Source: Candidatus Woesebacteria bacterium
Lineage (GTDB): Bacteria; Patescibacteriota; Microgenomatia; UBA1400; UBA12028
Direction: 5' to 3'
Length of the DNA stretch: 64,000 nt
NCBI GenBank assembly: GCA_040006915.1
Contig: JBDTWD010000003.1
Location: 38,023 to 102,022 of the forward strand
Part shown: positions 11,925 through 63,697 of the stretch, piece by piece
Position numbering within the stretch: position 1 is the stretch's first letter
Layout of the letters: every line of letters begins with the position of its first letter
Translations under genes and position numbers: made by a program
The notes under the pieces: model-generated
What the model was told of the DNA's origin: nothing
Database searches by the model: none
The model's input: only the letters and a program-made list of their open reading frames with translations

Positions 11925-12006
11925 GTCTATAGTATAGTACATCCGGCAACGAAAAGCCCCCCGATGTATCACCGAGGGGCTTCCATTTTTCAAAAACTAT
12001 TTTCCC

Positions 12007-34203: not shown

Positions 34204-34342
34204 GATCAGTATAGGATACTCAATAAACTCCAAATACCAAATACCAAATTTAAAGAGCCTTCTCCTCCTCAAGTGCTTTCCAAAACTCAGGGGGAATGCT
34301 ATACTACTTGTTCAGTAAAACCTAGAAATACACGAAATCCGT

Positions 34343-34579
34343 ATGCCTATCACCAAATCAGCACTCAAAGCTTTACGTCAAGACCGTCGTCGCGCAGAGA
34401 CGAACAGACCTATTCGCTCTCGAGTAAAGACTACTTTAGATGAATTAAAAACTGCTCAGTCACAAACTGCTCTTTCCAGTGCTTTTTCTGCTATTGATCG
34501 AGCTTTAAAAAAGAATCTGATTCATCGAAATAAGGCTGCTCGTCTCAAGAGCAAGGCCTCTAAACTGATCTCAAAGTAA
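34343..34579 (+). CDS. rpsT: 30S ribosomal protein S20
   Basis: MPITKSALKALRQDRRRAETNRP... Confidence 0.9.
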   Translation: MPITKSALKALRQDRRRAETNRPIRSRVKTTLDELKTAQSQTALSSAFSAIDRALKKNLIHRNKAARLKSKASKLISK

Positions 34580-34582
34580 GTT

Positions 34583-34612
34583 CCTCACTTGTGCCAGTGC
34601 CCCTTTTTTTGC
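34583..34612 (+). terminator. possible weak intrinsic terminator after rpsT
   Basis: Short hairpin (CACT-TGTGCC-AGTG) followed by CCCC + a 7-T run. The stem is only 4 bp. Confidence 0.3.
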
Positions 34613-35260: not shown

Positions 35261-35264
35261 ATCT

Positions 35265-35924: not shown

Positions 35925-35931
35925 AATCAGT

Positions 35932-36318
35932 ATGAAAAAAAGATTAACATTTAAACAACTCCTCTTTGAACAACAGATACTGGGAATTTTGCTCTTTTCT
36001 GTATTAGTTGTGTTTTTGTGGGTAGTATCGACTATTTATTTTTCCTACACCAAATCTACACTTACCAGTGAAGATGAAACGGTTGTTATCCCTCTGAGTC
36101 CTATTATTGATGATCGCCCACTACAAGTTTTAAGTAGCCGACGCTGGTGGAGTGACAGTGATCTACAAAGCTTTGCAGTCAGTGTCGTGATACGTGACAG
36201 TAACGGAAAAACGACGACTTCTCAAACCCAAACAGGAGCAGCTTCACCATCTGCTACCCTTGCGCCCACTCCTGTCCCCACACCACTTCCAGCCTCTGGT
36301 TCTGCCCAAACGCAGTAA
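35932..36318 (+). CDS. membrane-anchored protein with Thr/Pro-rich C-terminus (PilP-position, hypothetical)
   Basis: N-terminal TM, small domain, PT-rich tail. 8-nt gap after pilO. Confidence 0.4.
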   Translation: MKKRLTFKQLLFEQQILGILLFSVLVVFLWVVSTIYFSYTKSTLTSEDETVVIPLSPIIDDRPLQVLSSRRWWSDSDLQSFAVSVVIRDSNGKTTTSQTQTGAASPSATLAPTPVPTPLPASGSAQTQ

Positions 36319-36365
36319 GTGTATGGTACTTGTAGTGCAATTAGTGAGCATGATAGCGTAGTACT

Positions 36366-37682: not shown

Positions 37683-37727
37683 CATCTTGAGATTAGTTGA
37701 AAAGTTAGTTACTGTAGATATTGCATC

Positions 37728-39923: not shown

Positions 39924-39925
39924 CT

Positions 39926-40735
39926 ATGAAAAATCGAAAGTCTATCATCGCTGGTTTCATACTTTTTGTCCTAGTAGTGGCTGCTATTGGAGTGGTGATT
40001 ATCACTCGCCGAACTTCAGGAACACAATCTGTTGCTCCAACAGCTCCACAATCACAGCCAGCAGCAACATCTTGTACCCTTTCCTTTACGGTCGAAGGGA
40101 CACCTGGCCCTTCTGAAAGTCCAACCCCAACCCCTTCTGCATCACCGACAGCAAGCCCAAGTCCAACTCCAACCGCTACTCCTGTTGCTCAATGTAACAG
40201 TACTTGTGCGTCCGATAGTGACTGTCCTGCATCTATGACTTGTTCTAGTGGAACGTGTCGTAATCCAGCGTGTACAGACTCAGACAGCTGTGTATGTGCG
40301 ACTGCAACACCTGCTCCTACACCAACACCGACCCCAGGACCATCGTGTAACAGTGAATGCACCACCAATGATCAATGTCCGTCAAACTTAATCTGTGCTT
40401 CAGGTCGCTGCAGAATGCCAGGCTGCACTGCTCTGGATAGCTGTACTTGTGGACCAACCTGTAACTCAACCTGTACAACCAACTCTGACTGTCCAAGTGA
40501 TCTGATCTGTGCCTCGAATCAATGTCGCCGACCTGGATGTACAGCTCTGGATACGTGTTCATGTGGTACACCTGGACCAACAGCTACCCCTACAACTCCA
40601 CCAGTTGTGGTCCAAAGCACGCCTGTACCACAGGAAGTCCTTCCAGTCGCAGGTTCTTCCCTCCCAACAGCAGGGTTAGTAGGAACTGGGATCATCACTA
40701 TCATCATCGGAATCCTAGGGCTACTAGCACTCTAA
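39926..40735 (+). CDS. Cys-rich repeat surface protein with C-terminal LPTAG + TM sorting signal (start MKNRKS at 39926, 2 nt after the upstream gene)
   Basis: N-terminal TM/signal, PT-rich linker, three tandem 8-Cys modules, ...EVLPVAGSSLPTAG-LVGTGIITIIIGILGLLAL. Confidence 0.6.
   Translation: MKNRKSIIAGFILFVLVVAAIGVVIITRRTSGTQSVAPTAPQSQPAATSCTLSFTVEGTPGPSESPTPTPSASPTASPSPTPTATPVAQCNSTCASDSDCPASMTCSSGTCRNPACTDSDSCVCATATPAPTPTPTPGPSCNSECTTNDQCPSNLICASGRCRMPGCTALDSCTCGPTCNSTCTTNSDCPSDLICASNQCRRPGCTALDTCSCGTPGPTATPTTPPVVVQSTPVPQEVLPVAGSSLPTAGLVGTGIITIIIGILGLLAL
40193..40564 (+). repeat. three tandem copies of a ~35-aa 8-Cys module (CNSxCxxxxDCPSxLICASxxCRxPxCTALDSCxCG) encoded in-frame
   Basis: R1 AQCNSTCASDSDCPASMTCSSGTCRNPACTDSDSCVC. 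R2 PSCNSECTTNDQCPSNLICASGRCRMPGCTALDSCTCG. R3 PTCNSTCTTNSDCPSDLICASNQCRRPGCTALDTCSCG. Confidence 0.7.
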
Positions 40736-40832
40736 CTTCTCTTCGAAAAAGAACGCCATTTCATTGCTGACGTCCCTAAAAGAATGAGCATCACAAATAC
40801 ATGCTAGAAGAAAGTGCTTTCAGAGAGTTTCT

Positions 40833-41036
40833 TTAAGAAGCTTTTGATGGGACAGTTTTTTTGAAGCGGATAAAGGGAATGTTTACCTGCTTATCGCCTG
40901 AGTTTAAGGTGATCGCAAATCCCCCTTCGTTTAATTCGTTATGCTCTGCTAAAGAATCGAGTTGATCAATACGATCCCAAAACTCGTCATCAGTCAGCTG
41001 AATCAATTCCAATGGAAGTTGAAAAAAAGTTTGCAT
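40833..41036 (-). CDS. small hypothetical protein (67 aa)
   Basis: ORF only. Confidence 0.25.
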   Translation of the reverse strand: MQTFFQLPLELIQLTDDEFWDRIDQLDSLAEHNELNEGGFAITLNSGDKQVNIPFIRFKKTVPSKAS

Positions 41037-41115
41037 GAGACCTCTATCCTACCACTCTGTTCCATTTTTTCAAGAAAAGACACTTTGGATGTTATAATTT
41101 CCAGAGAGAAATAAG

Positions 41116-41189
41116 GGGCGTGTGGCGCAATCGGTTAGCGCAGGAAGCTTATACCTTCAAGGTTCCTGGTTCGAGTCCAGGCACGCCCA
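41116..41189 (+). tRNA. tRNA, anticodon loop CUUAUAC -> anticodon UAU (Ile, AUA-reading) by hand folding
   Basis: Acceptor GGGCGTG/CACGCCC, D-arm GCGC-AATCGGTTA-GCGC, anticodon arm GGAAG-CTTATAC-CTTCA (27-43 mismatch), variable AGGTT, T-arm CCTGG-TTCGAGT-CCAGG, discriminator A. CCA not encoded. Confidence 0.75.
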
Positions 41190-41395
41190 CAATCGTTGAA
41201 TAGGTTCATAAATTATGTGTGCTATGCCAGTTCTATCGAATGCGTGATACCATTTATGTAGTAGAAAAATGCATATATATGATTTCTTCTGTTCTCTGCC
41301 TACTTCTCATCAAACTTTAAGGCTTTTATGATATATATGTCTCGCGGTGATTCGACGTATAAACTGGGTGTACAATACACAAGTGAAAAGCAAAT

Positions 41396-41644
41396 ATGAT
41401 AAATATAAAGTTCGGCTCCAATAAAGAATCCAAATCATTCGTACTAAGCCTCTTCGACAAGACCATTGATAATGAAGGATATATCATTGAACAAAAATCA
41501 AAGAAGAGAGTGCTTAGTGCTGACGGACAGGAGATTACCCTCGAAGAATTTGGCGTGATTAAAAACGGTTCTGAAATCTTTGCAAAAGATGATATCGCCG
41601 CACTTGTTCGCTTTTACGAAAGGTACCTTAGCGATGCTAAGTAG
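41396..41644 (+). CDS. hypothetical protein (82 aa)
   Basis: ORF downstream of the tRNA, no motif. Confidence 0.35.
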   Translation: MINIKFGSNKESKSFVLSLFDKTIDNEGYIIEQKSKKRVLSADGQEITLEEFGVIKNGSEIFAKDDIAALVRFYERYLSDAK

Positions 41645-41653
41645 GTCTACTTT

Positions 41654-42466
41654 ATGTTGGATCTACTCCCTGGCTTAAAGACTATAATTGAGAAAGTTGG
41701 ACTGTCTGATTCGCTCAACCTCTTCTCCAACAACACGCAGAAAAACAACATCCTTAACGTAAATATAAACATCCAACCTGGAACTGATCCAAAAGCGCTC
41801 GCAGAAGTCGCTGTGGAGATGAAGAAACTCATACGAGGCAGTGAAGATGGTTTTTTGGGTGTAACGGACAAATCAGAAACAACGCTAGAGTTGATTGATG
41901 GATATGAAAAGAGTGATGTGGATGTGGAGCAAAGGAAGTTCGTGATGAGCTGTATTCCACAAAGAGATCGATCACTTTGGATGTCTGCACTAATACTTCG
42001 GAGACAATTCAAACTCATGGGCAATAAAGAAGAAGTTTGGCGAATTAAGGGGGATATGTCCAGATCGAGTTCTAGAGGGAAAAATATTGCCAATCTCTGT
42101 ACTGCAGGCTACTTGGAATCACATATAATTCCGCTGTATGAACACGTGGTTAATGAAAAACATGACGAGCAACAATTCATTGATATTTACTCAATGATCG
42201 TATCGGACTTCCCTTTTGCTGTTTTTGTGTCTCAGCTTCGATCAGATACGGAAATAAATGCAGAGATCGTTGAAAAAATCGAGACAGTTGGACAGTACGG
42301 ATGGAAGATGGTCAAGGTTCACGGGATCGGAGAGGAAAATGTAAAAAAAATTCAACGTGTAGTGCTGCAAGTACAAGATGAGAAAAAAGCTGAAATAATC
42401 AGCACTGATGTAGATTCCCACCGATCAGGCGGACAAATAATCGCTGTTACTTTCAATCTTAAATAG
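41654..42466 (+). CDS. hypothetical protein (270 aa)
   Basis: Clean ORF. Weak resemblance of C-terminal VKVHGIGEENVKKIQRVV to an Smr-type HGxG motif only. Confidence 0.45.
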   Translation: MLDLLPGLKTIIEKVGLSDSLNLFSNNTQKNNILNVNINIQPGTDPKALAEVAVEMKKLIRGSEDGFLGVTDKSETTLELIDGYEKSDVDVEQRKFVMSCIPQRDRSLWMSALILRRQFKLMGNKEEVWRIKGDMSRSSSRGKNIANLCTAGYLESHIIPLYEHVVNEKHDEQQFIDIYSMIVSDFPFAVFVSQLRSDTEINAEIVEKIETVGQYGWKMVKVHGIGEENVKKIQRVVLQVQDEKKAEIISTDVDSHRSGGQIIAVTFNLK

Positions 42467-43233
42467 AACAAAATTTTTCTACACTTTCATTAACACTCGT
42501 TTCCATTGAACTGCTAGAAAGTTCCACATACACTGAATGTGATACAATTCCGTTCTTAATAAATTGTTCTTGAGGTAGTCTCGACTAATTTAAATAAACA
42601 TTACCGAATACCTTTACCTTGTTTTGTGTTTCGTCTCATCGACAAGGTAATACGTCATATTGGGTCGGGGTGTGGGTGGCGTTGGCTCGCCTCTCACACC
42701 CGTAACCTCTCGATCGTATACTCCACCTCGAGGACCTCGAAGTCCCAACTGTCCGGAATCTTCCAATATCTCACCTGGTTTGTAAGTTCTTTTTGTGTTT
42801 GCCATAGCGATCACACTTTCTGCGAGGTACCTCAAGAACAATTCATCAAGCATAAAAAAAGCCACCCTCGGTTTGGTGGCGTGTCTCCTATTCTCCTGTT
42901 ACAGCACAAATTTAGTCACGGCACATATCGATGTTTGGGGTCTTATATTATTAAATCGTTAAAGAACGAAAAACCCCTTAGTACGTTGGCAAGGCTCCAG
43001 GTTATGGAACTTTGGCAAGTATTACCTTGCCGCCGTACTAAAGGGTCTTTCCTGGTTTATACTCCGCTTGCCATCAGAGTTTTTCTCGTAGTACTACTTT
43101 TACCAAAAGAGATAAATGAAATCAAGATTCAAATTCAACACAAGAAGTAATCTAATTGGTGGAAACCGTGTACGCAGTGGTGTTTATAGATAAATAGGTT
43201 CGCACATCGTCCACGAGTGCCCACTAACAGATT

Positions 43234-43824
43234 CTAGTCTCTTTTGTAGTGTGGTTGTCCATCTACATAGACTAACGATGATCCAGGAGGAATTGCGTAA
43301 ATATCTGGTAACTCTCTGCCTTTGCCTCCAGCATCTAATCCCCATCCGACCAGCCAATCAGATTGATCGTACTCTATAGCCATCCGTAGCTTAGGTAATC
43401 GCTCCTTTGTGCTTGTTCGAGCTATTAGAGTTACCATTGCTACCGAAGCACATTTATACGCCTTATAAACTCTTTCAAGAAAATGGGTAGTGGTCCCCGT
43501 ATCCACAATTTCATCGACCAAAAGAACATGATCTCCCGTGGGAATTTCCGTTGGGCCACTCACGAGCCTGGGAAATTGGACTTTCTGTTGATCTTGATAC
43601 GTACTGACATGCACAAAATCAAACTCTGTTGATAATCCTAACCTTGAGAGTTCCTGCATCAGCGTTATGGCGACGGGAGCACCACCCTTCATGACCGCAG
43701 TCACAACAAGACTTGTGTCACTTTTTTCATAATCAGGGGCAATGAGGTAAGCAAGCGAAGATAAACGTTCCCGTATTTCTGACTCTGGGTAAAGTAATCG
43801 CGCTGGTAAGATTTTTTCCGCCAT
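43234..43824 (-). CDS. hpt: hypoxanthine-guanine phosphoribosyltransferase
   Basis: PRPP-binding VLLVDEIVDTGTT, 196 aa. Confidence 0.8.
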   Translation of the reverse strand: MAEKILPARLLYPESEIRERLSSLAYLIAPDYEKSDTSLVVTAVMKGGAPVAITLMQELSRLGLSTEFDFVHVSTYQDQQKVQFPRLVSGPTEIPTGDHVLLVDEIVDTGTTTHFLERVYKAYKCASVAMVTLIARTSTKERLPKLRMAIEYDQSDWLVGWGLDAGGKGRELPDIYAIPPGSSLVYVDGQPHYKRD

Positions 43825-43829
43825 GTTTT

Positions 43830-46163
43830 TTAAAGCTTCGCTCGAACGGCTGTTTCTTGTTCCACAATATCTCGTGGACGACCGTATTTAATCCTTGAGA
43901 GCTCACGAATGAGTTCAGCGCGTTTGGGATCCATCAGTTTCTTCTCCCCTTCAATATCGCGCGTTAAGTCCATGCTAAATGGAGGAACAGGCTCGTTGTT
44001 CACAATGGTTTTGATGTAGACGTGATATTTTTCAATATTGGTTAAATCTGTTTCAGAAAATGTTGGCGCAAATTCATGTTGCAGAAAATTTGCATCCGGA
44101 ACACCAACACGGAAAGTTACCATCGAGCCAACGTTGCCAAAGACCGCGTTCTTTACGTCTTCTTCGATCTGAGCCACAAACTGGTTGGCAACAATCAAAT
44201 TTAGTCGGTACTTACGAGCTTCAGAAAGAATGGTAGCGAAATCTTCAGTTGCATAGTTTTGGAACTCATCGACGTAGAGATAGAAATCTCGACGCTGCTC
44301 CATCGGCATATCTTGACGACTCATGGCAGCCGTTAAAATCTTTGGCACCAAAATCAAACCTAAGAACTTGGCATCCTCTTCTCCCAATTTTCCTTTGGAT
44401 AAATTGACCAAGAGAATCTTTCCTTCATCCATAACCTGGCGGAAATTAAAAGCGCTTTGACTTTGGCCAATAATGTTTCGCATTACCTTATTGGTAATGA
44501 ATTTGCCAAATTTCGAAACGATGTAGTCTAGAACTTCAGACTTATGGAAATCACTCGTCTGGGCAATCTGGTCCGTCCAGTAGCGACGCACAACCGGATC
44601 TTTCACTTTCGGAAGCAGTTCCTGCACATACTTTTGATCAGTCAAACAGCGCACGAGTTCAATAAAAGTAGCCCCTGGTTCAGCCATAATAGTTAACATG
44701 GCGTTACGAATGGCATGCTCAAATCGTGGACCGATGATACCGGTTTTGTGTGGATCGTAGAGCTTGTACATTAACGCGATAATTGATCCCACCACAAAAT
44801 GCATCTGTTCTTCGGTCTGCGCTTCCATAATATTTAAACCCATCGGTCGTTCAGTATCAGATGGATTAAAGTAAATAACTTCTTCAGCTCGTTCTGGAGG
44901 GATAAGCTGCATGATATCTTCGACCAACTCTCCATGTGGATCCAAAACTGCCATCCCTTTTCCAGCTCTGATATCCTGCAAAATCATATCTTTTAAGAAT
45001 TCTGATTTTCCGGTACCAGTCTTTCCGACAATATACATGTGACGTTGACGATCTTTTTCCTCAATAAAGATCTCTTTCTTTGTCCCTCGATAATTACTTG
45101 AACCTAAGCGCATTCCAGAAGTTGCGATACTGGCCGGAGCCGGAGCCGACTTAGCTTTAAGCCAATTAATGTGGTGGGTTTCAACCGTTTTATTAGGGAA
45201 ATGCAGAATTGTAGACATCTCTTCAGAATTTAAAACAAATGCCCCGCGATCAAATAACGGCATGTAGCGATAAATGAAATCGACCATGAATAATTGCTTG
45301 AACAAAATTCTCGATCGCTTAAAGCTATTCGTTGGACTACTAAACTGAGCAAAAGCACCAAGAATGTTAGTTAAGTGAGAATTAGCCCTCCTGGCATCAA
45401 TTGATGAGACCACAACACGCAGAGCTACTTTAAATCCTGGTTTGGAAGCTTTGGTCTCAATGGCATCCAGTTTTTTAGGGTCATGATTATAGGAAGCTTT
45501 TTGTGGATCAGATTCTTTTTTCTTCGTATCGGCAACATACTTGCTTCCAGCTCGCTGCCATCCGGGACCAGCGGGCTCTAACACAAATTGCACAATTGCC
45601 CCCTCACCTTCATCCATTTTCGAAAGCGCTGAACTTAAGAGTGATAGTCCATCAGTGGGAAGATCTTTATATACTTTAATTGGTAGATACGTTTGACTGG
45701 CTAGAGTCAAAGCTGCAAACGCAACTTTGCCACCTTCTGAGAAAATATTGTATTCTTCCGCCTCTTCAATCTCTGCAGATGGATAGGCTCCATAAATTTG
45801 TTTTTCAATCAAATCAGTTAACTCCGCTGGAACCGTAACGTAAAAGGCAATGCTTTCGTGTAACGCCACAATTTCAAACGTAAAGTGATCTTCAGGTTTA
45901 AGAATTGATCCCACTCCTTCATTTTTTAAACTGTATAAACCGGCAAACATCTGTTCAGCTGCATCAATTTTTATTTCGTTCTCTTTAGGTAACAATACTT
46001 TGAGAACCTTAAAGCCAAGTGAGTATTTTTCTCTCCCACGGAATCGAAACCATTGGACAACCATATAGACGAGCCCTGCTCCGAAGATCAACGGGATCGC
46101 AAACAAGGCCAGGCTTGTGAGAATTTGGGTAACGACAATTGCAATATCAGTGGTTGGATCCAT
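43830..46163 (-). CDS. VirD4/TraG/TraD-family type IV coupling protein-like membrane ATPase
   Basis: Two N-terminal TM helices, Walker A YIVGKTGTGKSEF, Walker B FYLYVDEFQNY, C-terminal ...SEARKYRLNLIVANQFVAQIEE (TraG-D_C-like). Confidence 0.65.
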   Translation of the reverse strand: MDPTTDIAIVVTQILTSLALFAIPLIFGAGLVYMVVQWFRFRGREKYSLGFKVLKVLLPKENEIKIDAAEQMFAGLYSLKNEGVGSILKPEDHFTFEIVALHESIAFYVTVPAELTDLIEKQIYGAYPSAEIEEAEEYNIFSEGGKVAFAALTLASQTYLPIKVYKDLPTDGLSLLSSALSKMDEGEGAIVQFVLEPAGPGWQRAGSKYVADTKKKESDPQKASYNHDPKKLDAIETKASKPGFKVALRVVVSSIDARRANSHLTNILGAFAQFSSPTNSFKRSRILFKQLFMVDFIYRYMPLFDRGAFVLNSEEMSTILHFPNKTVETHHINWLKAKSAPAPASIATSGMRLGSSNYRGTKKEIFIEEKDRQRHMYIVGKTGTGKSEFLKDMILQDIRAGKGMAVLDPHGELVEDIMQLIPPERAEEVIYFNPSDTERPMGLNIMEAQTEEQMHFVVGSIIALMYKLYDPHKTGIIGPRFEHAIRNAMLTIMAEPGATFIELVRCLTDQKYVQELLPKVKDPVVRRYWTDQIAQTSDFHKSEVLDYIVSKFGKFITNKVMRNIIGQSQSAFNFRQVMDEGKILLVNLSKGKLGEEDAKFLGLILVPKILTAAMSRQDMPMEQRRDFYLYVDEFQNYATEDFATILSEARKYRLNLIVANQFVAQIEEDVKNAVFGNVGSMVTFRVGVPDANFLQHEFAPTFSETDLTNIEKYHVYIKTIVNNEPVPPFSMDLTRDIEGEKKLMDPKRAELIRELSRIKYGRPRDIVEQETAVRAKL

Positions 46164-47370: not shown

Positions 47371-48768
47371 ATGAATTATAGCTTGAGTCGTCGACATATT
47401 ATATTCCAATTGCTTCCTCTGCTTTTTATCATGATCGCGATAGTCTTGGGTAGTTTAAATTTTAATAAAATTCGAGAATTCTTAATTGGAGCGTTAGGGC
47501 AAGAAGCGAACATCATTATTAATACTCAAGTTTCCCAAGGACCAATGGTCTATCCCTGGCACAATCTTGCCCAAGGTGGAGAAAATAAAGATTGGAGATT
47601 AGCTCCCCTCACCAACCAAGTCAAAGCGTTGCAACCACAATATATCCGTCTGGATCACCTCTATGACTTCTACGATATCGTTCATGGGTCTCCAGGACAA
47701 CTGACGATGGATTTCTCCAAACTCGATGTCATCATCCAAGACATTAGAGCTACGGGTGCCACTCCGTTTCTGTCTCTTTCCTATACACCTCCTGCTATTG
47801 CAGTCGGTGGCGACATCACCGCTCCACCCGCAAGGTGGACTGATTGGCAGTTCGTCGTCCAACGAACAATTGAACATGTAAGTGGAACACTTAATATTCC
47901 CAATGTGTATTACGAAGTATGGAATGAACCTGATTTGTTTGGTGGATACAAAACCTATGGAGACAAAAATTACCTGACGATGTACCAGTATGCCGCGCAA
48001 GGAGCCAAAAATGCCAGGGTCAGGCAACCATATAAAATTGGCGGTCCAGCAATTACAGCGTTGTATAAAAACTGGGTCGATAGCATGATTCAGATGTGCC
48101 TTGATCAAAATCTGCCATTAGACTTTTTCTCCTGGCATCGCTACAGCCGTGATGTTGATGTATTTCGTCAGGACATTTCCCAAGTCCGGCAATGGCTAGC
48201 AGCGTATCCACAAAAATCTAATATTGAGCTTGATATCACCGAATGGGGACATGATCCCCAAAACGATAGCGGCTATGATGGACAATTTGGGGCAATACAT
48301 ACAATTGCAGTCAGCACTGAACTGATTGGAAACATCGATAAAGCCTTTGTGTTTGAAATCCAAGATGGTAAGGATCCGGCCGGACAAACCCGCTGGGGCC
48401 GTTGGGGATTATTTGATAGTCAAAACCAAGCCAAACCTCGCTATTCTGCACTTCGTTTCTTGGACCGATTGACGGGTGAGAGAGTACAACTTCTCGGTCG
48501 AGGAACTTGGGTGAAAGGTGTATCAAGCAAGGCTGGACAGGATATTTTAACGATTCTGGCCAACTTTGATCCCGCAGGTCGACACATTGAAACAGTTCCT
48601 ATTACCTGGAAAGGAATAACTCCTGGAAACTTTGAGATTGAAACTCAGTTTTTTGCCGGAAGTTCGAACAAACAACGCGTGGCGACTACTGGAGCAGAAC
48701 TGCATATTGATGTTCCAATGCCAATCAACAGTGCGGTGTTTGTAAAACTCCACCCGGTTGGACCGTAA
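47371..48768 (+). CDS. membrane-anchored clan GH-A glycoside hydrolase (GH39/GH5-like TIM barrel)
   Basis: N-terminal TM. YYEVWNEPD (acid/base NEP) and ITEWG (nucleophile) motifs. Confidence 0.6.
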   Translation: MNYSLSRRHIIFQLLPLLFIMIAIVLGSLNFNKIREFLIGALGQEANIIINTQVSQGPMVYPWHNLAQGGENKDWRLAPLTNQVKALQPQYIRLDHLYDFYDIVHGSPGQLTMDFSKLDVIIQDIRATGATPFLSLSYTPPAIAVGGDITAPPARWTDWQFVVQRTIEHVSGTLNIPNVYYEVWNEPDLFGGYKTYGDKNYLTMYQYAAQGAKNARVRQPYKIGGPAITALYKNWVDSMIQMCLDQNLPLDFFSWHRYSRDVDVFRQDISQVRQWLAAYPQKSNIELDITEWGHDPQNDSGYDGQFGAIHTIAVSTELIGNIDKAFVFEIQDGKDPAGQTRWGRWGLFDSQNQAKPRYSALRFLDRLTGERVQLLGRGTWVKGVSSKAGQDILTILANFDPAGRHIETVPITWKGITPGNFEIETQFFAGSSNKQRVATTGAELHIDVPMPINSAVFVKLHPVGP

Positions 48769-49347: not shown

Positions 49348-49938
49348 TTATTGTTTTAAGCCTTTGTTGTGAATCATTGTATTACCGATGAATTCTCGAA
49401 CCAATGATTGATCTGCTTTGGCCAGCTGTTTTTCAATGTCCCTTTCCAATTGTTCTGGATCAATACGCTTTAACATCCACTCGAGTTCCGGATCAGGGTC
49501 CGGGCCGCTAATGCCTCGCTCTTTCTTTAGTTCCACTAAAATCTCTAAACATTTTGTAATTTCTTGCTCGGCAATTTGATTGATCTGCAAATGCAATTCT
49601 TCTCGCAAAGTTGCAATTTGCGCAGCGCGGTTTTGAGAGATCAACACAAATACAGAGAGAATAATAGCCTCAAGCGATACCACCATTGTTAAAAACCCAA
49701 AAGGATATGGATCAAAGGGAGCAAAACCAGGAACTAGCCCCAGATTTAACGTGATCCAAACGATAAAGATTCCGACATTAACGAACAGAAACAGCGGAGT
49801 ACTTGAATACGAGGTCAAGTGATCAGCAAACTTGGTTGACGATGACCGCTGACGAAGGGATGTTGCTTCAAGAACTTTGTAGATTTGTCTTCTAGTGTGA
49901 TAACTTCTGGCCATATCTTGTAGTGTATTCTTTTTCAA
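49348..49938 (-). CDS. DUF1003 family membrane protein
   Basis: Two TM followed by a coiled region. Architecture typical of DUF1003. Confidence 0.55.
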   Translation of the reverse strand: MKKNTLQDMARSYHTRRQIYKVLEATSLRQRSSSTKFADHLTSYSSTPLFLFVNVGIFIVWITLNLGLVPGFAPFDPYPFGFLTMVVSLEAIILSVFVLISQNRAAQIATLREELHLQINQIAEQEITKCLEILVELKKERGISGPDPDPELEWMLKRIDPEQLERDIEKQLAKADQSLVREFIGNTMIHNKGLKQ

Positions 49939-51067
49939 TCAATTTCTCTATCTCCTCTTGGAACCTGGCTTTTGAGAATTTTTGAGCATGGGTCTTTATT
50001 TTTTCAGGATCGAATTTCTGTGACTCAAATTGCTTGACTGCATCACATAAACCTTCAACACTTAATGAATTAAACAAAATTCCTGTTTTCCCGTCTATAA
50101 CAGTCTCCATCGGCCCTCCTGATTTGTGGGCGATGACTGGAACTCCATGCATCATAGCCTCGACTGGCACAATTCCAAAATCTTCATCTTCAACTGGATA
50201 CAGAAGAGCTTTCGCGTTTTGATACAGTTTGGCCAAAGATATATCATCGATAGCTCCCATAAGTTCGACAGTCTTGCCTGCTATTTTTTCTAACTCCTCG
50301 GCCATAGCTCCTTTGCCTACTACTTTGAGTGCAATTCCTAATTGGGTTGCAGCTCTCACTGCAATCTCGGGGTGCTTGGCAAATGCTAATCGATTTACAT
50401 ACAAATAATATTCTCCGTTCCCTTTTGTTTTGTCATCTTTAACTTCGACGGGAGGATAAATGACCACAGAATCTCTTCCGTAAAATTTCTGGATTCGTGC
50501 TTTCACCTCCTTCGAGTTTGCTACCAATACGTCGGGCCGTTGTGCGGTTACATAATCAATTTGACGCAGACGAAAGTTAATCAACTCACCGACGATACGA
50601 GTAATCGGATTTTTTTTCCAGTTACTGGCTGTGGTGTACCCATATAGTGACCTTGGAGGTGTATGAATATAACTGATGTGAAGCGTATGCGGATTGGTAA
50701 GAACGGCCTTAGCCATATACATATTCGTACTAGAAATGACCACATCGTAGTCGGAAAAATCAAATCCCTCAAAAAAATAAGCTGCAAGAAGTCGTAATGG
50801 AGAATAGAGTTTTTTTATTCCTGGGATTCGAGCGGCACTGCTCTCTTTAATATTCCAATTCTTAAATCGTTGCCAATGAATTCCTAAAGCTTCTGGGTCA
50901 ACAAAAGATGTATACAGTGGCGCATCAGGGAACATTTCATGTAATGCCTCAACCACGCGCTCTGCTCCTCCATATTCACGTAAATAATCATGGACTAATG
51001 CAATTTTCAGTGACTTCATGAGGTAAGTATAGCATTTGAAACTGTTACATTTGCGCAACACAATCAA
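49892..51067 (-). CDS. GT4-family glycosyltransferase
   Basis: C-terminal E...FGIVPVEAMMHGVPVIAHKSGGPMETV motif (EX7E-like). Confidence 0.8.
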   Translation of the reverse strand: MIVLRKCNSFKCYTYLMKSLKIALVHDYLREYGGAERVVEALHEMFPDAPLYTSFVDPEALGIHWQRFKNWNIKESSAARIPGIKKLYSPLRLLAAYFFEGFDFSDYDVVISSTNMYMAKAVLTNPHTLHISYIHTPPRSLYGYTTASNWKKNPITRIVGELINFRLRQIDYVTAQRPDVLVANSKEVKARIQKFYGRDSVVIYPPVEVKDDKTKGNGEYYLYVNRLAFAKHPEIAVRAATQLGIALKVVGKGAMAEELEKIAGKTVELMGAIDDISLAKLYQNAKALLYPVEDEDFGIVPVEAMMHGVPVIAHKSGGPMETVIDGKTGILFNSLSVEGLCDAVKQFESQKFDPEKIKTHAQKFSKARFQEEIEKLIEKEYTTRYGQKLSH

Positions 51068-51090
51068 TCCAAGTACAGTTATAGAGCCCT

Positions 51091-51903
51091 ATGAATAAAA
51101 GAGTTCTCATCGGTTTGATTCTCATCATCACAGTTATAGTGGGAATTGGACTCGCTGTCAGTTTATACCTCTCAAGTCAGACGCAAGAGAATCGAAATCA
51201 AGCCTGGACCACAACGCAATCAGCCAACAGTACCTGTGGCGTTGATGGAAAAGCGGTCATCGTCGTCACGTTTTCAAATACAGAACCTGCGAATACTCCT
51301 GCAGACGACATGACTGTCTCTGCTACAGATACCCAGAGCAATCAAAGTGTCAGTATTGGATTAGTCAAAGGTGGGGAAACACTTTCAGCCTCAATTTTGA
51401 CAGGATTTGCTTCGCTAGCGGCTGGAAACGTCCAGCTCCGTCTGACTTGGGCAAATGGAAGAGCAGGAACGGATACTCGAACTGCAAGTTACGGTGCGGT
51501 CTCAACTTGTCTAGTTGCTACCCCCTCCCCAACCCCTGAGATAACCCCTGTTCCCTCACCCACTCCCGAGGTAACACCTAGTCCTACACCAATAACGACA
51601 TCAACTCCTCAGCCAACCAGTACACCGACTAATACTCCTCCCCCCACCTCAGGACCAAGTTGTAACTCACAATGCACCGTCAACACCGATTGTCCCTCAG
51701 ACTTAATCTGTGCATCAAACCAATGTCGCAGACCTGGATGTACTGCCCTTGACTCCTGCAACTGTGGAACACCGGCACCGGCGACACCCACCTCAACTCC
51801 ACAGATATTACCAGTCGCAGGTGGAAGTGGACCGACACTATTTATTCTCACAGCTGGGATGTTTATTCTCATTCTTGGAGTCCTGGGTTTTACGAGACTG
51901 TGA
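51091..51903 (+). CDS. Cys-rich module surface protein with PT-rich linker and C-terminal LPVAGG + TM sorting signal
   Basis: N-terminal TM. TPSPTPEITPVPSPTPEVTPSPTP linker. One 8-Cys module PSCNSQCTVNTDCPSDLICASNQCRRPGCTALDSCNCG (module at 51661-51765). ...QILPVAGGSGPTLFILTAGMFILILGVLGFTRL. Confidence 0.6.
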   Translation: MNKRVLIGLILIITVIVGIGLAVSLYLSSQTQENRNQAWTTTQSANSTCGVDGKAVIVVTFSNTEPANTPADDMTVSATDTQSNQSVSIGLVKGGETLSASILTGFASLAAGNVQLRLTWANGRAGTDTRTASYGAVSTCLVATPSPTPEITPVPSPTPEVTPSPTPITTSTPQPTSTPTNTPPPTSGPSCNSQCTVNTDCPSDLICASNQCRRPGCTALDSCNCGTPAPATPTSTPQILPVAGGSGPTLFILTAGMFILILGVLGFTRL

Positions 51904-53017
51904 GGATGAGGTCTTCCCATTTCTTACACATCTGGGATGCCAGAAACTTACTTTGTACCATCTTCTTTCCCCGTGCACCCATTACGCCACGCTGCGAAGA
52001 ACGAAGCGCTTTTCCCATGACTACTGCTAAATCATCGTCATCATGAGCCGTAAAATACCATCCAGTTTTCCCGTTCTCAACAATCTCGATTTGGGGACCA
52101 AAGCCCGTGGTAATAACTGGTATTCCTGCAGCCATCGCCTCAATCGCAGTCATTCCAAAACCTTCAAGTTTCCACGCTGAAGGAAAGATAAAGAGATCTG
52201 ATTCAGATAGAAGTCGTTTTTTTTTGCCATCTGAAACAAACCCTAAGAATTTGACTGAATCTGAAATTTTCAAATCTTTGCTTAATTCTTCTAAATATTT
52301 TCTCTCTGGACCGTCACCAATAATTTGAAGTTTTTTGTTCGTCCGATCCATTTTTGCCCACGCTTTCAACAGAACATCTATTTCTTTCTCAGTAGCCAAC
52401 CGTGCAACAGTTGAGATAATCACCTGTTTTTTTCTCTGGTTTTTGGGTTTTAGGAAAGGGATCTCAACACCTGGGTAAATGATTTCAATTTCACTCTCTG
52501 GAATCTTCCCCATTTGCACTAAAGATCTCTTTGTCCATTCCGAAATAGTAACGATCTTATCTGGAAACGGACGTCCAAATGCATACAGAAGTTTGGGAAA
52601 ACCATGATTGCGGGCAAAAGTCGGCTCCAAAGGACCGTACTCAAGCCAAATAAGCGTCCCCCCCCACCGTTTTACGAATGGAGAAAAGGAAAGCCTATCC
52701 GAAAATCCCGGAAACAAACACACCACTTTCGCGTTAGTAGCTCGAAGTTTTTGTAGTGTTATTCGTAGCCAAAACAATGCACCAGGAAGAGCGAGAAAAT
52801 ATTTAAGAAGTCCCTTCCAATTTCCAATCGCATCTAGTCTGTATGGAAGATCAATAACTTCTATCTTCCCGATACAAGCCTTTTTGACTGAGGCGTTATT
52901 CGTTGCCAAAACGACGTGATATTTTTTTGTTGCCAAATGAAACAAAACGGAGCATAGATATTCTTCTGCTCCCCCATATGCTGGGGTATCAAGCAGCGAA
53001 AAAATCGTGGGAGGCAT
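51890..53017 (-). CDS. GT4-family glycosyltransferase
   Basis: EGFGMTAIEAMAAGIPVITTGFGPQIEIVENGKTG. Confidence 0.8.
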   Translation of the reverse strand: MPPTIFSLLDTPAYGGAEEYLCSVLFHLATKKYHVVLATNNASVKKACIGKIEVIDLPYRLDAIGNWKGLLKYFLALPGALFWLRITLQKLRATNAKVVCLFPGFSDRLSFSPFVKRWGGTLIWLEYGPLEPTFARNHGFPKLLYAFGRPFPDKIVTISEWTKRSLVQMGKIPESEIEIIYPGVEIPFLKPKNQRKKQVIISTVARLATEKEIDVLLKAWAKMDRTNKKLQIIGDGPERKYLEELSKDLKISDSVKFLGFVSDGKKKRLLSESDLFIFPSAWKLEGFGMTAIEAMAAGIPVITTGFGPQIEIVENGKTGWYFTAHDDDDLAVVMGKALRSSQRGVMGARGKKMVQSKFLASQMCKKWEDLILTVS

Positions 53018-53027
53018 ACGAAACTGT

Positions 53028-53660
53028 CTATTTTGCTAATAGCGCATCTACAGTGGATTTCAAATCATTTACGTCGGTTGCGACGTTATTTACGTAAAAG
53101 GTTGGAGTCGCATTGACTCCAAGAGTATTGGCATCGGTTTGATCAGCTGTGATCCTCGCTTCTACTTCTGGACTCACGCGATCTTTCTTAAATTTCTCTA
53201 CATCAAGTTTTAAATCTTTTGCGTACCCATCAAACTTAGAAGTTGGGTCAGCATCCTCTTCCCACTCTGATTGGGTTTCAAACAATTTGTCATGCATCTC
53301 CCAAAATTTTCCTTGATTAGCAGCTGCTTCAGCAACTTTGGACGCCGCATACGCATTTTTATGAACAGTAGTGAGTGGATAGTGACGATACACCAATCGC
53401 ACGCTCTCTGTAGCTGTCTGAGTAATCAAATCAACTAACGGTTGTGCAGCTTTACAGGCCGGACACTGGAGATCGGAAAATTCAACGATCGTGACTTTGG
53501 CATCCTCTTTCCCTTTGCTGTTTTTGGTTTGTCCTAACACTACTTTCGAATCAACTGGAGCAACCGGAGCATTCGCTTTTTTGGTAAACAAAAATGCAAC
53601 CGCAACTACGGCAATACATGTAACAGCGAGTGAACCTAAAAGGAGCCAAAGATTTTTCAT
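53028..53660 (-). CDS. DsbA-like thiol:disulfide oxidoreductase (second paralog)
   Basis: N-terminal TM/signal. CPAC active site (FSDLQCPACKAAQPL). Confidence 0.75.
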   Translation of the reverse strand: MKNLWLLLGSLAVTCIAVVAVAFLFTKKANAPVAPVDSKVVLGQTKNSKGKEDAKVTIVEFSDLQCPACKAAQPLVDLITQTATESVRLVYRHYPLTTVHKNAYAASKVAEAAANQGKFWEMHDKLFETQSEWEEDADPTSKFDGYAKDLKLDVEKFKKDRVSPEVEARITADQTDANTLGVNATPTFYVNNVATDVNDLKSTVDALLAK

Positions 53661-60630: not shown

Positions 60631-61116
60631 CTATTCTAGAAACCCTTCCACAATCATATCTTCAGCAAGTTTCTGTGGGATTCCCCGGCTTTCTAGATAA
60701 AACAAATGTTCTTCAGGAATCCTTGAGATACTCGCAGCGTGAGAACATTTCACATCATCAGTCTTGATTTCGAGTTCGGGAATGGCTTCAGCTTTGGCCT
60801 TGTCAGACAGTAATAAAATTCGTTCCTCTAAAAATGACTGGGTGTCTCCACAGTCTTCCTCGATAATGATCCGACCAAAAAACCGAATATGGCTCTTGTC
60901 TTCTGCTACTCCCTTGAGTATCGTTTTGGCTCGCGTGTGAGGAGCTTTATGCACAATCGTTAAGTTAATGTTTATGTCATCATCATTTTTTCCGTGAAAC
61001 ATTCCTACGATTGATATTTCATCTCCAGGATTAAGAATTTCGACTCGATAGTCACCTGATTTGGTCAAGGTAATGTTTTTCATATTAGCCAACTGACCCT
61101 TCCATCTCATGATCAA
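60631..61116 (-). CDS. sufD: SufD-like protein, short form (161 aa, C-terminal SufBD domain only). TTG/alternative start likely.
   Basis: ...ILLLSDKAKAEAIPELEIKTDDVKCSHAASISRIPEEHLFYLESRGIP matches the SufB/SufD C-terminal signature (LEI..DDVKCSHGAT). Confidence 0.7.
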   Translation of the reverse strand: MIMRWKGQLANMKNITLTKSGDYRVEILNPGDEISIVGMFHGKNDDDININLTIVHKAPHTRAKTILKGVAEDKSHIRFFGRIIIEEDCGDTQSFLEERILLLSDKAKAEAIPELEIKTDDVKCSHAASISRIPEEHLFYLESRGIPQKLAEDMIVEGFLE

Positions 61117-63697
61117 TCAATCGATTCATTTCAATTGCATACTCAAGTGGGAGCTTTTTCACAAGATCATTGACGAATCCATTCACAATCATTTTACGAC
61201 TATCTTCTTCCGTTACACCACGACTCATCAAATAAAATAGTTGCTCATCACCAATGCGACTCACTGTAGCTTCATGTTGGATCTCGACCTGATCATTCAT
61301 AATCCGATCAGTGGGATACGTGTCGGAACGTGATTTTCCATCCAAAAGCATGGCATCACACACCACCGTATTTTTACTATGATGCGCCTGGGGTGACACC
61401 ATCACCATTCCCCGGTAACTAGTACGTCCGCCATCTTTACTAATGGATTTAGAAATAATAGTTGAGCTCGTATATGGAGCTAAATGCATTGCTTTGCTTC
61501 CAGTATCTTGATGTTGCCCGGCTCCTGCTAAGGCCATTGATAATGTTTCTCCCTTGGCACCCTTTCCTACTAACAAGAAAGATGGATATTTCATGGTGAG
61601 TTTGGAACCCATGTTAAAGTCTGTCCATACCATTGTTGCTTCTTCCTCAACACGAGCACGTTTAGTGACCAAGTTATAGACATTTTTGTACCAATTCTGG
61701 ATAGTTGTGTACTGACATCTAGCTCCTTTTTTCACGAAAATCTCAACCACTGCAGAATGCAGTGATCCGGAGGAAAATGCCGGAGCGGTACAATTATGAA
61801 CGGCAACTCCCCCTGCTACATAGCTTTCGTCATCTCGAACACTAAAGTTATAGACTGGCAAATTTTTTACAGTTTTTCTTTCAATTGAACGAATAGGAAC
61901 GTACATATACTTTTCATCGATATGATAAAAAGTAGCTCGTTTTTTATTATGTAATCGGTCTTCTACTTTCTCTTCTGCAATTTTTGCAAAATCTGATAGG
62001 TACTGTCCGCCGATCACACACACATACATTGTCTTTCTCCCTTCATACGATCTGCTTTGCCAATTTAAGCTCGATGCGATGTTGAGACGCAAAAGTATTT
62101 GTCGTGCTTGTGAAGCAAGTGTTTTTGAGGTCGTACACAGACGAAATACTTCTTTTAATCCATGTTTATGAGTTTTTTTGTAATAGTTCCCATCACCTCT
62201 ATACCACCCTAACAGCAACTGCTTCTGTTTTTCTAAAGACTCTTTCATCATCCAAAGTGGAATTTTTTTTTCGTCACACTTTGTTCCGAACTGTTTAAAT
62301 AATCGACACAATCTTGTAGAAGAAACTACGACAGAAGTTCCGTGGTTCGTTTTATGTGTTTGCTCACTAATTCTGTTCTCGTCAAAAACAATCCTAATAA
62401 GCTTTTTTACATCATCAATATATTCTCTCTCATTACTGTTAAATGAAAAATTCAGATAATGTCCACTACTAATACTCCCCTCTGCCAGATAATATCCAAC
62501 TAACCGAAAGAAATCCTCTGTAGAAGGGATTGACACTTCTTCAAGAAAGGGGCCATGTCTTCCGGCACCACGTAATACTGGAAAACGAACAGTTTTGTTT
62601 TTGAAAATCTCTCTATCTATAGGAATACAAGCATAGTCGTATTTGGAAATATTTTTTGTTTCTGTCCATGAAGGAATCCATTTACTGTTTCTTTCATTTT
62701 TTCTCTGTCTCTTCACTATAAGAAAAGGATGCTCTTGTGTTGTCTCTATTTTCTCTTTTGGAGAACCAACAAGTTCTATCGTATAGAGGTCTCCAGAATA
62801 CGGCCGTACCTGCGTGTAATACACCTCTTTGTAACGTCCTTCATGTGTTAGAACTAAATCTCCCTTCTCAATTGACTCAATTGCCGCTTCACCCATATCG
62901 GTTTGAATGCGTGTCCCCGCAGTGAAACAGCCCTCCACGTAGTGAACACTCGCTCCTTCATCCACTATGATCAACGTGCGTTCAAATTGACCTGCATTTG
63001 GAGAATTAATACGAAAATACGCTTGGAGAGGCATCTTCACATCCAACCCCTTGGGTACATACACAAACGATCCCCCCGACCAAACAGCAGTATTGAGGGC
63101 CGCAAATTTATTATCTCCGGACGGAATATTTTTGCCAAAGTATTCTTTGATGAGATCAGGATATTGTTTTAGGCCCTCATCCATTGACAAAAAGATTACT
63201 CCTTGTTCCTCCCAGATGTTTTGCAGAGATCCATAGACCACTTCACTATCGTATTGGGCTTTCACACCAGCCAGAACATCTCGTTCTGCCTGAGGAATTC
63301 CCAACTTATCAAAAGTTGCTTTCACGTCAGCCGGAACATCATTCCAAGACTCAACAGACTTATCTGTCGGTTTTAAGTAGTAATGAATTTTATCGTAATC
63401 GATTTCCGACAATACTCCTCCCCAGGTTGGGGTTTGCATGCCTTCAAATATCTCCAAGGCTTTGAGACGGATCTCTAGCATCCACTCTGGTTCCTCTTTA
63501 ATGTGTGAGAGTTCTTCTACTACTCGTTTGGACAATCCAGGTTTAGAAATAAAACTATATTTGTCAGTTGGATACGAAAACCCTGCCGTATATGTCGAGT
63601 CGACTACGGAGTCATCAAACTGCGTCGTATGTTTGTTTGCAAATCTGGACATAATTATAAAACTGAAAGCAGTGTTTTCACTCTCGTTTCTTAGCAC
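61085..63697 (-). CDS. sufB: Fe-S cluster assembly protein SufB interrupted by an in-frame intein (870-aa precursor; ~491-aa mature SufB)
   Basis: N-extein ...LIIVDEGASVHYVEG | C-extein CTAPAFSSGSLHSAVVEI...VVCDAMLLDG...FYLMSRG. Host sequence is SufB-like at both ends. Confidence 0.9.
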   Translation of the reverse strand: MLRNESENTAFSFIIMSRFANKHTTQFDDSVVDSTYTAGFSYPTDKYSFISKPGLSKRVVEELSHIKEEPEWMLEIRLKALEIFEGMQTPTWGGVLSEIDYDKIHYYLKPTDKSVESWNDVPADVKATFDKLGIPQAERDVLAGVKAQYDSEVVYGSLQNIWEEQGVIFLSMDEGLKQYPDLIKEYFGKNIPSGDNKFAALNTAVWSGGSFVYVPKGLDVKMPLQAYFRINSPNAGQFERTLIIVDEGASVHYVEGCFTAGTRIQTDMGEAAIESIEKGDLVLTHEGRYKEVYYTQVRPYSGDLYTIELVGSPKEKIETTQEHPFLIVKRQRKNERNSKWIPSWTETKNISKYDYACIPIDREIFKNKTVRFPVLRGAGRHGPFLEEVSIPSTEDFFRLVGYYLAEGSISSGHYLNFSFNSNEREYIDDVKKLIRIVFDENRISEQTHKTNHGTSVVVSSTRLCRLFKQFGTKCDEKKIPLWMMKESLEKQKQLLLGWYRGDGNYYKKTHKHGLKEVFRLCTTSKTLASQARQILLRLNIASSLNWQSRSYEGRKTMYVCVIGGQYLSDFAKIAEEKVEDRLHNKKRATFYHIDEKYMYVPIRSIERKTVKNLPVYNFSVRDDESYVAGGVAVHNCTAPAFSSGSLHSAVVEIFVKKGARCQYTTIQNWYKNVYNLVTKRARVEEEATMVWTDFNMGSKLTMKYPSFLLVGKGAKGETLSMALAGAGQHQDTGSKAMHLAPYTSSTIISKSISKDGGRTSYRGMVMVSPQAHHSKNTVVCDAMLLDGKSRSDTYPTDRIMNDQVEIQHEATVSRIGDEQLFYLMSRGVTEEDSRKMIVNGFVNDLVKKLPLEYAIEMNRLIDHEMEGSVG
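61793..62929 (-). mobile_element. intein (~379 aa) with LAGLIDADG-type homing endonuclease domain inside sufB
   Basis: Begins CFTAGTRI (Cys1) after host ...YVEG. Ends ...GGVAVHN followed by +1 Cys of host CTAP. Internal LVGYYLAEGS and LLGWYRGDGN are LAGLIDADG-like blocks. Confidence 0.8.

Follow-up and report, generated by a model that had tools for sequence, protein, structure and literature searches.

A 64,000-nucleotide stretch of the genome of a Candidatus Woesebacteria bacterium (hereafter the window) carries a gene for a cysteine-rich (Cys-rich) protein between two genes for family 4 glycosyltransferases (GT4_1 and GT4_2), close to a gene for a DsbA-like thiol:disulfide oxidoreductase. 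The question raised by this locus is whether the four genes form a dedicated system that glycosylates and oxidatively folds a surface protein, as a reading made from the sequence alone (the sequence-only reading) had proposed, or whether they are neighbors for other reasons. Bacteria of the Candidate Phyla Radiation (CPR, or Patescibacteria) live attached to other cells. Their surface proteins, including the folding, anchoring and possible glycosylation of these proteins, are central to the attached lifestyle and, to our knowledge, almost unstudied. Our results suggest that the neighborhood is mostly a matter of gene order and not a dedicated glycosylation-and-folding system. The GT4 pair and the DsbA-like gene are kept in relatives that lack the Cys-rich gene, and the other proteins examined that have the same eight-cysteine (8-Cys) module have no GT4 or DsbA neighbors, so the proposal of coordinated glycosylation and oxidative folding by the flanking enzymes is not borne out. 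We favor, at a probability of roughly 60%, a model in which the Cys-rich gene, fast-evolving and lineage-specific, encodes a surface protein and occupies a variable position within a conserved cassette for glycan synthesis, with the DsbA-like enzyme acting in trans.

The layout of the locus is as originally described. The open reading frame (ORF) list of the window and Pfam matches both support the gene order: GT4_1 (49892–51019, minus strand), a cytoplasmic GT-B enzyme of 375 aa; the Cys-rich gene (51091–51903, plus strand), encoding 270 aa with 10 Cys; GT4_2 (51890–53017, minus strand), likewise cytoplasmic and 375 aa long; and the gene for the membrane-anchored DsbA/BdbD-like oxidoreductase (53028–53660, minus strand), with its CPAC motif at 53454–53465. 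The mechanical ORF of GT4_1 spans 49892–51067, extending to a TTG at 51067, but the true start is almost certainly the ATG at 51019 (protein start MKSLKIALVHDY), because a 375-aa gene call on the public contig and the starts of the orthologues agree on it. On the minus strand, the end of the DsbA-like gene and the GT4_2 gene downstream of it are 10 bp apart, the convergent GT4_2 and Cys-rich genes overlap at their 3' ends by 14 bp, and the Cys-rich gene and GT4_1 diverge from a 71-bp intergenic region.

Comparison with relatives reveals how loosely the Cys-rich gene is tied to this setting. Loci were gathered through orthologues of the locus genes, and the genome scan used a 36-sequence alignment of GT4_2, which gave no match as a single query; labels beginning with L denote public loci compared with the window, and those beginning with P homologous proteins or contigs. 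Seven syntenic loci of about 15–20 kb, the window included, comprise Suf genes, SAHH, DsbA, GT4_2, GT4_1, GH39, Maf and a TraG-like gene, and the GT4_1–GT4_2 backbone is present in all seven, with or without the Cys-rich gene. GT4_1 orthologues are 63–74% identical in L002, L004, L005, L009 and L084. The Cys-rich gene lies between the GT4s at three loci: alone in the window; in L002 (47% identity, two modules) together with a 243-aa methyltransferase-like gene and a 124-aa gene; and in L084 (44% identity, two modules) together with a methyltransferase-like gene. At the other four the slot is filled without it. L004 and L005 have only the methyltransferase-like gene, L009 has this gene with a CDP-alcohol phosphotransferase-like (CDP-OH_P_transf) gene and one unknown gene, and the closest relative, whose GT4_2 is 68% identical, has a 111-aa gene, the methyltransferase-like gene and a 418-aa gene. 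The homologue search returned no Cys-rich homologue from the 834-kb contig of that relative. Because the syntenic genomes are roughly equally distant from the window (85–87% identity for the TraG-like protein and 88–91% for SAHH), the presence or absence of the Cys-rich gene reflects recent gain or loss.

The usual occupant of the slot is instead the methyltransferase-like gene, found there at six of the seven loci, with no copy in the window. It lies at 10953–11684 in L002, 9139–9864 in L004, 9088–9831 in L005, 9076–9852 in L009 and 1748–2470 in L084, and also at 9154–9906 in L012, a distant genome in which it follows GT4_2 on the same strand and overlaps it. Its product is a cytoplasmic protein of 240–258 aa and a regular partner of GT4_2; the sole family match is a weak one to Methyltransf_23 (20.5 bits), and there is no NCBIfam match.

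Several observations weigh against our interpretation. All three known module-bearing orthologues, in the window, L002 and L084, lie between the same two GT4s, and the conservation of this position in that sub-lineage could reflect selection. The 71-bp divergent region shared by the Cys-rich gene and GT4_1 would allow co-regulation; it contains a weak sigma-70-like promoter match upstream of the Cys-rich gene (51036–51064, plus strand, 9/12 consensus), a pointer only, as such sites are no more numerous in this region than in shuffled sequence. Pro/Thr linkers such as that of the Cys-rich protein are typical O-glycosylation targets, GT4s that O-glycosylate repeat-rich surface proteins exist (SdgA/B and GtfA), and both of these are among the weak NCBIfam matches of the GT4s in the window. 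The comparison also covers only seven syntenic loci, with the 111-aa and 418-aa genes of the closest relative known by length alone. It does not strictly hold that the GT4s never co-occur with Cys-rich proteins: the GT4–substrate–GT4 arrangement, whose conservation the sequence-only reading proposed as a check, is kept in three orthologous loci, although the Cys-rich gene is missing from the other four.

Beyond the syntenic loci, the contexts of GT4_2 bear the signature of a sugar-pathway or glycan-assembly enzyme. We found about 100 Patescibacteria orthologues at 40–68% identity, and in none of ten more distant Patescibacteria genomes are the window neighbors retained beside the orthologue. 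A DegT/DnrJ/EryC1 aminotransferase gene is directly upstream of it in L010, L013 and L015 (identified by Pfam in the first two and from the N-terminal sequence in L015), and an 801-aa ORF in L014 (6789–9194) fuses a DegT/DnrJ/EryC1-type protein (residues 1 to ~395) to a GT4_2 orthologue (401–801). In L007, the orthologue sits amid genes for family 2 glycosyltransferases (GT2s), a PMT_2 protein and a further GT4.

The enzymes themselves are typical of their family. Glycos_transf_1 matches GT4_1 with 93 bits and GT4_2 with 140 bits (Pfam cut-off, 26.4), the Glyco_transf_4 N-terminal domain scores 33 bits in each (cut-off, 28.5), and the EX7E motif reads EDFGIVPVE at residue 279 of GT4_1 and EGFGMTAIE at residue 285 of GT4_2. 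The best solved relative of GT4_1 is the C-terminal domain of the mannosyltransferase WbaZ-1 (E = 4e-20); the best solved GT4 relatives overall are BshA, MshA, WbaZ, PimB, TarM and Gtf1, with matches that span the nucleotide-binding half only. All NCBIfam equivalog models fall far below cut-off for both enzymes. PF20706 (GT4-conflict) also exceeds its cut-off of 26 bits, with 27 and 43 bits, over the shared Rossmann half only and far below Glycos_transf_1; a role in a defense or conflict system was considered and rejected, with no PADLOC match for any of seven locus proteins.

In the model we favor, the flanking GT4s would be cytoplasmic, nucleotide-sugar-dependent transferases of a Patescibacterial glycoconjugate cassette, composed of GT4_2 and the methyltransferase-like gene with GT4_1 added in the clade of the window; elsewhere, GT4_2 is linked or fused to the DegT sugar aminotransferase and linked to GT2, CDP-alcohol phosphotransferase and PMT_2 genes. 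What the cassette makes is most likely a polysaccharide or glycolipid of the cell envelope. Clusters that make such products resemble the locus and its relatives in having two cytoplasmic EX7E GT4s, a methyltransferase-like partner, DegT, GT2, CDP-alcohol phosphotransferase and a GH39-like hydrolase across the relatives, although no flippase, polymerase or priming phosphotransferase was seen in the window. In one sub-lineage, a surface-protein gene combining an N-terminal domain of an Ig-like family with a module and tail of the type found in a paralogue that we call Cys3x would have settled between the GT4s, and in the window it would have replaced the methyltransferase-like gene. The nearby membrane-anchored GH39-like protein (47371–48768) and DUF1003 protein (49348–49938), both noted earlier, have Pfam support. 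A Psl-like exopolysaccharide cluster, suggested by an anchored GH39 next to GT4s, was considered and rejected as more than an analogy, as the solved relatives of the GH39 protein are beta-xylosidases and PslG is not among the matches.

Related Cys-rich proteins are found in quite different company. A co-occurrence search with a three-copy alignment of the module yielded only five loci, of which four spanned about 1 kb each; as this is too few for statistics, individual contexts were used instead. Homologues of the N-terminal domain that lack the module (P0004–P0006; L003, L085 and L089) are surrounded by unrelated genes, with no GT4 or DsbA neighbor. The same absence holds for the other 8-Cys proteins examined (5743–6210 and 39875–40735 in the window; L093, L095, L097, L098, L100 and L102), including a four-module protein in L093 with no GT4 or DsbA gene within 8 kb. 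The usual context of the module family is the end of a PilN/PilO/FN3 cluster with the conserved order MurJ, (S20), PilN, PilO, a small gene, an FN3/Big_13 protein, a 400–730-aa protein and an 8-Cys-module protein, present in L095, L097, L098, L100 and L102 and at 32542–40735 in the window, where the 400–730-aa protein is Cys-rich. The last gene of the window cluster is Cys3x (39875–40735, plus strand), which encodes three 8-Cys modules and an LPVAG tail.

Next to orthologues of this paralogue in other lineages, a gene for a candidate protein glycosyltransferase recurs. In five of five distant genomes, the Cys3x orthologue is followed within 1.5 kb by a convergent gene of the protein O-mannosyltransferase (PMT) family (~800 aa; PF02366, PMT_2, PMT_4TMC) and then by LytR_cpsA_psr. 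Neither the window nor L002 has a PMT gene at this position, and tblastn with three PMT and two PMT_2 proteins of relatives found nothing in the window at E ≤ 0.01; LytR and DegT homologues were likewise not found there. Instead, the interval 40736–43830 of the window contains tRNA-Ile(TAT) (41116–41190), a 270-aa ORF without a family match (41654–42466) and an HPRT-like gene, followed by the TraG-like gene; synteny apparently breaks off here, behind the three-module protein, at a place where relatives have PMT and LytR. The TraG/VirD4-like coupling-protein homologue itself (43830–46163; TrwB_AAD_bind, annotated as DUF8128 in relatives) belongs, after SAHH, to the best-conserved genes in this part of the genome. 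The PMT gene that recurs beside the paralogue family is, if anything, a better lead to O-glycosylation than the flanking GT4s. The linker may be glycosylated, but the data do not implicate the flanking GT4s in this.

These contexts bear on an alternative in which the GT4s contribute to glycosylation indirectly. Together with the methyltransferase-like enzyme in relatives, they would build a lipid- or polyprenyl-phosphate-linked glycan that is flipped across the membrane and transferred to the Pro/Thr linkers of surface proteins, the Cys-rich protein included, by a GT-C enzyme (of the PMT/PMT_2 type or an O-oligosaccharyltransferase), and the neighborhood would be a loose link between a glycan supply line and one client. 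The adjacency of the GT4_2 orthologue in L007 to a PMT_2 GT-C gene, GT2 genes and a further GT4 is consistent with this idea, as are the PMT-family genes beside 8-Cys, Pro/Thr-linker paralogues in all five distant relatives and the GT4-flanked arrangement kept in three orthologous loci. That protein glycosylation in CPR bacteria is still termed unexplored (PMC11623550) also leaves room for it; neither that paper nor PMC4736985 contains experimental evidence on CPR protein glycosylation, and a literature search combining Patescibacteria and protein O-mannosyltransferase found nothing. However, neither the window nor the flanks of L002, L004, L005 and L009 contain a detectable PMT, PMT_2, Wzy_C-type or flippase gene, and four of the seven loci have the GT4 pair but no Cys-rich gene. 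Moreover, a PMT would normally require just a GT2 polyprenyl-phosphate-mannose synthase and no GT4s, as in the Pmt/Ppm1 pathway. We consider this alternative unlikely.

A broader version would extend the idea to the whole protein class. Proteins with Pro/Thr linkers, 8-Cys modules and [LIV]Px[AS]G tails would form a Patescibacteria-wide class of O-glycosylated, disulfide-knotted surface "stalks" whose glycosylation is hard-wired in gene order, the main paralogue lying beside a PMT-family gene in most lineages and, in the Woesebacteria sub-lineage of the window, a satellite copy residing in a GT4/methyltransferase cassette that makes the glycan donor. We regard this proposal as speculative and quite unlikely to be correct.

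The DsbA-like gene raises the corresponding question for folding. Its identification in the sequence-only reading is upheld by Pfam (Thioredoxin_4, 91 bits; DSBA, 55 bits), by the CPAC motif at residues 66–69, by an N-terminal hydrophobic anchor and by its solved relatives, namely 3gyk, BdbD (3eu3; E = 2e-13) and DsbA chains 4pwp/4pwo (E = 1e-11). The second DsbA-like protein that had been noted (12007–12756, minus strand, CPFC) has a Thioredoxin_4 match of 118 bits, and, again in line with the earlier account, no DsbB/BdbC or VKOR partner was present among the window membrane proteins scanned. The DsbA gene precedes GT4_2 in five loci, namely the window, L002, L004, L005 and the closest relative (P0010 contig), and the order SAHH–DsbA–GT4_2 is kept in the last four; in L009 there is no DsbA upstream of GT4_2, and the L084 contig stops short of that position. 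Most likely, then, the position of the DsbA gene follows this conserved gene order, and its oxidase function is independent of adjacency. BdbD and MdbA oxidize exported proteins and sortase substrates. By analogy, the DsbA-like enzyme probably oxidizes the Cys-rich protein, and it most likely acts in trans as an extracytoplasmic oxidase of general scope, serving every exported protein that is rich in Cys.

A dedicated folding pair, in which the CPAC enzyme is specialized for the adjacent 8-Cys protein and the CPFC enzyme serves general needs, might be read from the different active-site dipeptides of the two paralogues and from the distance of no more than 1.1 kb between the DsbA-like and Cys-rich genes. 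We judge it very unlikely: L004, L005 and the P0010 contig lack a Cys-rich gene yet keep DsbA in its place between SAHH and GT4_2, and no Dsb neighbor accompanies the two remaining 8-Cys proteins of the window or any of those examined in other genomes. Directly downstream of the second DsbA gene, at 8718–11993, are genes for a 7TM_transglut membrane protein (PF14402), an ATP-grasp-like protein of 440 aa and a protein of 332 aa; together they give the impression of a conserved neighborhood of the peptide-modification type, in which the 7TM protein alone was checked with Pfam.

Least probable of all is direct cytoplasmic O-glycosylation of linker Ser/Thr residues by one or both GT4s before export, in the manner of SdgA/SdgB or GtfA/GtfB: GT4_2 immediately adjoins the putative substrate gene and weakly matches Gtf1 structures and the SdgA, SdgB and GtfA models (NF047880, NF047881 and TIGR02918; 62, 41 and 52 bits), but these scores are far under the cut-offs of 800, 800 and 575 bits and lower than those of the stp2, BshA and EpsE models, the matches are confined to the nucleotide-binding half that these enzymes share, GT4_2 orthologues occur almost universally in Patescibacteria loci that have no such substrate gene, and the fused DegT aminotransferase speaks for an enzyme of a sugar pathway. 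For GT4_1, the protein O-glycosyltransferase models score just 21 and 22 bits, and a dozen polysaccharide, thiol or glycolipid GT4 models in NCBIfam match the two GT4s as well or better. The SdgA/SdgB and GtfA/GtfB systems with their accessory Sec genes do resemble the locus in placing a GT4 gene beside a low-complexity, wall-anchored surface protein. Unlike these systems, the locus has a Pro/Thr-rich linker and not serine–aspartate (SD) or serine-rich (SRR) repeats, its GT4s are kept where the substrate gene is missing, and no GtfB or SecA2/SecY2 partner or SD/SRR-repeat substrate was found among the surveyed window ORFs.

The Cys-rich protein itself, which is 100% identical to a hypothetical protein from a Candidatus Woesebacteria metagenome-assembled genome, has the architecture expected of an exported, disulfide-rich surface protein. 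The AlphaFold2 (AF2) model comprises a helix, an Ig-like domain, a disordered linker, a small module and a second helix. The N-terminal signal or anchor segment (residues 1–35; 51091–51195) contains the hydrophobic stretch VLIGLILIITVIVGIGLAVSLYL and is modeled as a helix over residues 3–35; the hydrophobic N-terminus and this helix mark it as a putative export signal. The Ig-like domain that follows (residues 38–140; 51202–51510) is a seven-strand beta-sandwich modeled with a per-residue confidence (pLDDT) of about 90–95 and bracketed by C49 and C140, both among the conserved columns in an alignment of seven homologues. Foldseek searches of the model against the PDB returned generic Ig-like matches only, none with E < 1e-3. 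One of these, an archaeal type IV pilin, likewise combines a helix with a sandwich, but a pilin identity was rejected, as the protein has a C-terminal sorting signal and no leader of the prepilin-peptidase type. A Pro/Thr/Ser-rich linker spans 50 residues (141–190; 51511–51660), includes TPSPTPEITPVPSPTPEVTPSPTP and is predicted to be disordered (pLDDT ~40–60 as means of 10-residue blocks). A single 35-aa module (residues 191–225; 51661–51765), delimited by a regular expression and by alignment with four other copies in the window, holds the remaining eight of the 10 Cys in the pattern C-x3-C-x5-C-x5-C-x4-C-x4-C-x5-C-x-C.

The protein ends in a sorting-type signal (51808–51900) made up of LPVAG (residues 240–244; 51808–51822), which has Ala where LPXTG has Thr, and a 26-residue hydrophobic tail (245–270) that ends in TRL and holds one Arg only (…GFTRL). 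From its sequence, a sortase signal of the LPXTG-variant type is a reasonable interpretation; no LPXTG-anchor model appeared among the NCBIfam matches of the locus proteins at E ≤ 0.01, and no ORF of sortase size in the window contains TLxTC. The earlier description of an exported, disulfide-rich protein with a sortase-type C-terminal signal is supported both by this architecture and by the occurrence of the same tail in 55 of 79 proteins with a strict match to the module. We infer that the protein would be exported by Sec via its N-terminal hydrophobic segment and oxidized outside the membrane, where one disulfide would close the Ig-like domain and four would knot the 8-Cys module; LPVAG and the hydrophobic tail would then hold it at the surface, whether by sortase transfer to the wall or as a plain membrane anchor.

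The 8-Cys module defines a genuine family, well beyond chance. Five copies occur in three window proteins: one in the Cys-rich protein, three in Cys3x and one in a 155-aa protein (5743–6210, minus strand) with an SPKTG signal, which lies between hrcA and mnmA-like genes and has no glycosyltransferase or Dsb neighbor. A profile of these copies matched 645 representative protein clusters at E ≤ 1e-3, 89 of them at E ≤ 1e-10, among 1.84 billion representatives. In the module proteins inspected, an N-terminal anchor is combined with Pro/Thr linkers and with between one and four modules in tandem, and about 70% of the strict-module proteins (the 55 of 79 above) end in [LIV]Px[AST]G and a hydrophobic tail, most often with LPVAG, IPVSG or LPEAG as the pentapeptide. 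The sorting-type signal is thus a trait of the module family. Some relatives have canonical signals with basic tails (LPGTG…RKLARKIA in homologue P0007; LPKTG…RKMRG in another), and the tail RRRSL is also found. With some 650 clusters, the 35-aa module family is not represented by a bacterial model of its own in either of the libraries searched, Pfam and NCBIfam. One Pfam entry resembles the module: Dumpy_DPY (PF21164), described from the extracellular matrix proteins of animals as a small disulfide module. Cys3x passes this model in two stretches (37.8 bits against a gathering cut-off of 27), and the Cys-rich protein scores below that cut-off (21.2 bits). The Cys spacing is similar over ~24 residues, but the match spans only about two thirds of the bacterial module, and neither the organisms nor the domain settings are related; that short Cys patterns converged seems as likely as homology.

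Within the window, the aligned C-terminal segments of the Cys-rich gene and Cys3x share 78% DNA identity. Recent gene conversion between their modules was rejected at this level of identity; because it is just 78%, the two genes are paralogous through an event that is not recent. Many module proteins also share a stretch after the anchor, …VAPxAPxSxPxA…C-x-L-x-F-[TS]-[VLI], with a single extra Cys that precedes the Pro/Thr linker. A crude regular expression finds it in 35 of the 79 proteins; it occupies residues ~40–65 of Cys3x and is present in P0111, P0117–P0119, P0125, P0260 and P0264–P0277. This odd Cys on a lone beta-strand might serve in an intermolecular disulfide or in strand donation. 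Upstream of Cys3x, a 731-aa protein (37728–39923) has a Pro-rich N-terminus, many Cys in partly module-like patterns and a weak match to DUF4215, a Cys-rich repeat; the 3' end of its gene overlaps the mechanical start of the three-module gene.

Known systems offer partial precedents. Gram-positive sortase-anchored disulfide proteins and their oxidases (MdbA in Actinomyces and Corynebacterium, BdbD in Bacillus) are similar in their N-terminal signal, one or more disulfide-closed Ig-like domains, a pentapeptide with a hydrophobic signal, and a membrane-anchored, thioredoxin-fold CxxC oxidase encoded in the genome. In contrast to those substrates, the locus protein has LPVAG ([LIV]Px[AST]G in its family) in place of LPXTG and a basic tail reduced to one Arg, its 8-Cys knot module and long Pro/Thr linker are foreign to the classical pilins, and the window has no sortase, VKOR or DsbB partner. 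Within the CPR, Peregrinibacteria genomes had already been described as encoding extracellular proteins rich in Cys, along with a sortase and only one disulfide-bond protein (PMC4736985). The Peregrinibacteria proteins share with ours the CPR lineage, a signal peptide, a very high Cys content, a proposed role in attachment and strain-level variability, but they are ~1,650 aa long with Myxococcus-like Cys-rich repeats, whereas the locus protein has 270 aa and a single 35-aa module of a different pattern. Elsewhere in the window, a SufB-like ORF of 870 aa (61085–63697) has an apparent intein-like insertion (…VEGCFTAG…VHNCTAP…) inside the SufB core.

In summary, if the flanking enzymes did act as a coordinated system, the locus would be a compact model for protein glycosylation in the CPR. 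Were the proteins with Pro/Thr linkers and 8-Cys modules an O-glycosylated class across the Patescibacteria, it would be a genuine, loosely organized glycoprotein unit and a first handle on the process. The evidence points instead to an ordinary variable surface-protein gene in a conserved sugar-pathway neighborhood. Its useful by-products are a delimited 35-aa module family, the [LIV]Px[AS]G sorting-type tail of that family and the adjacency of its main paralogue to PMT in other lineages.

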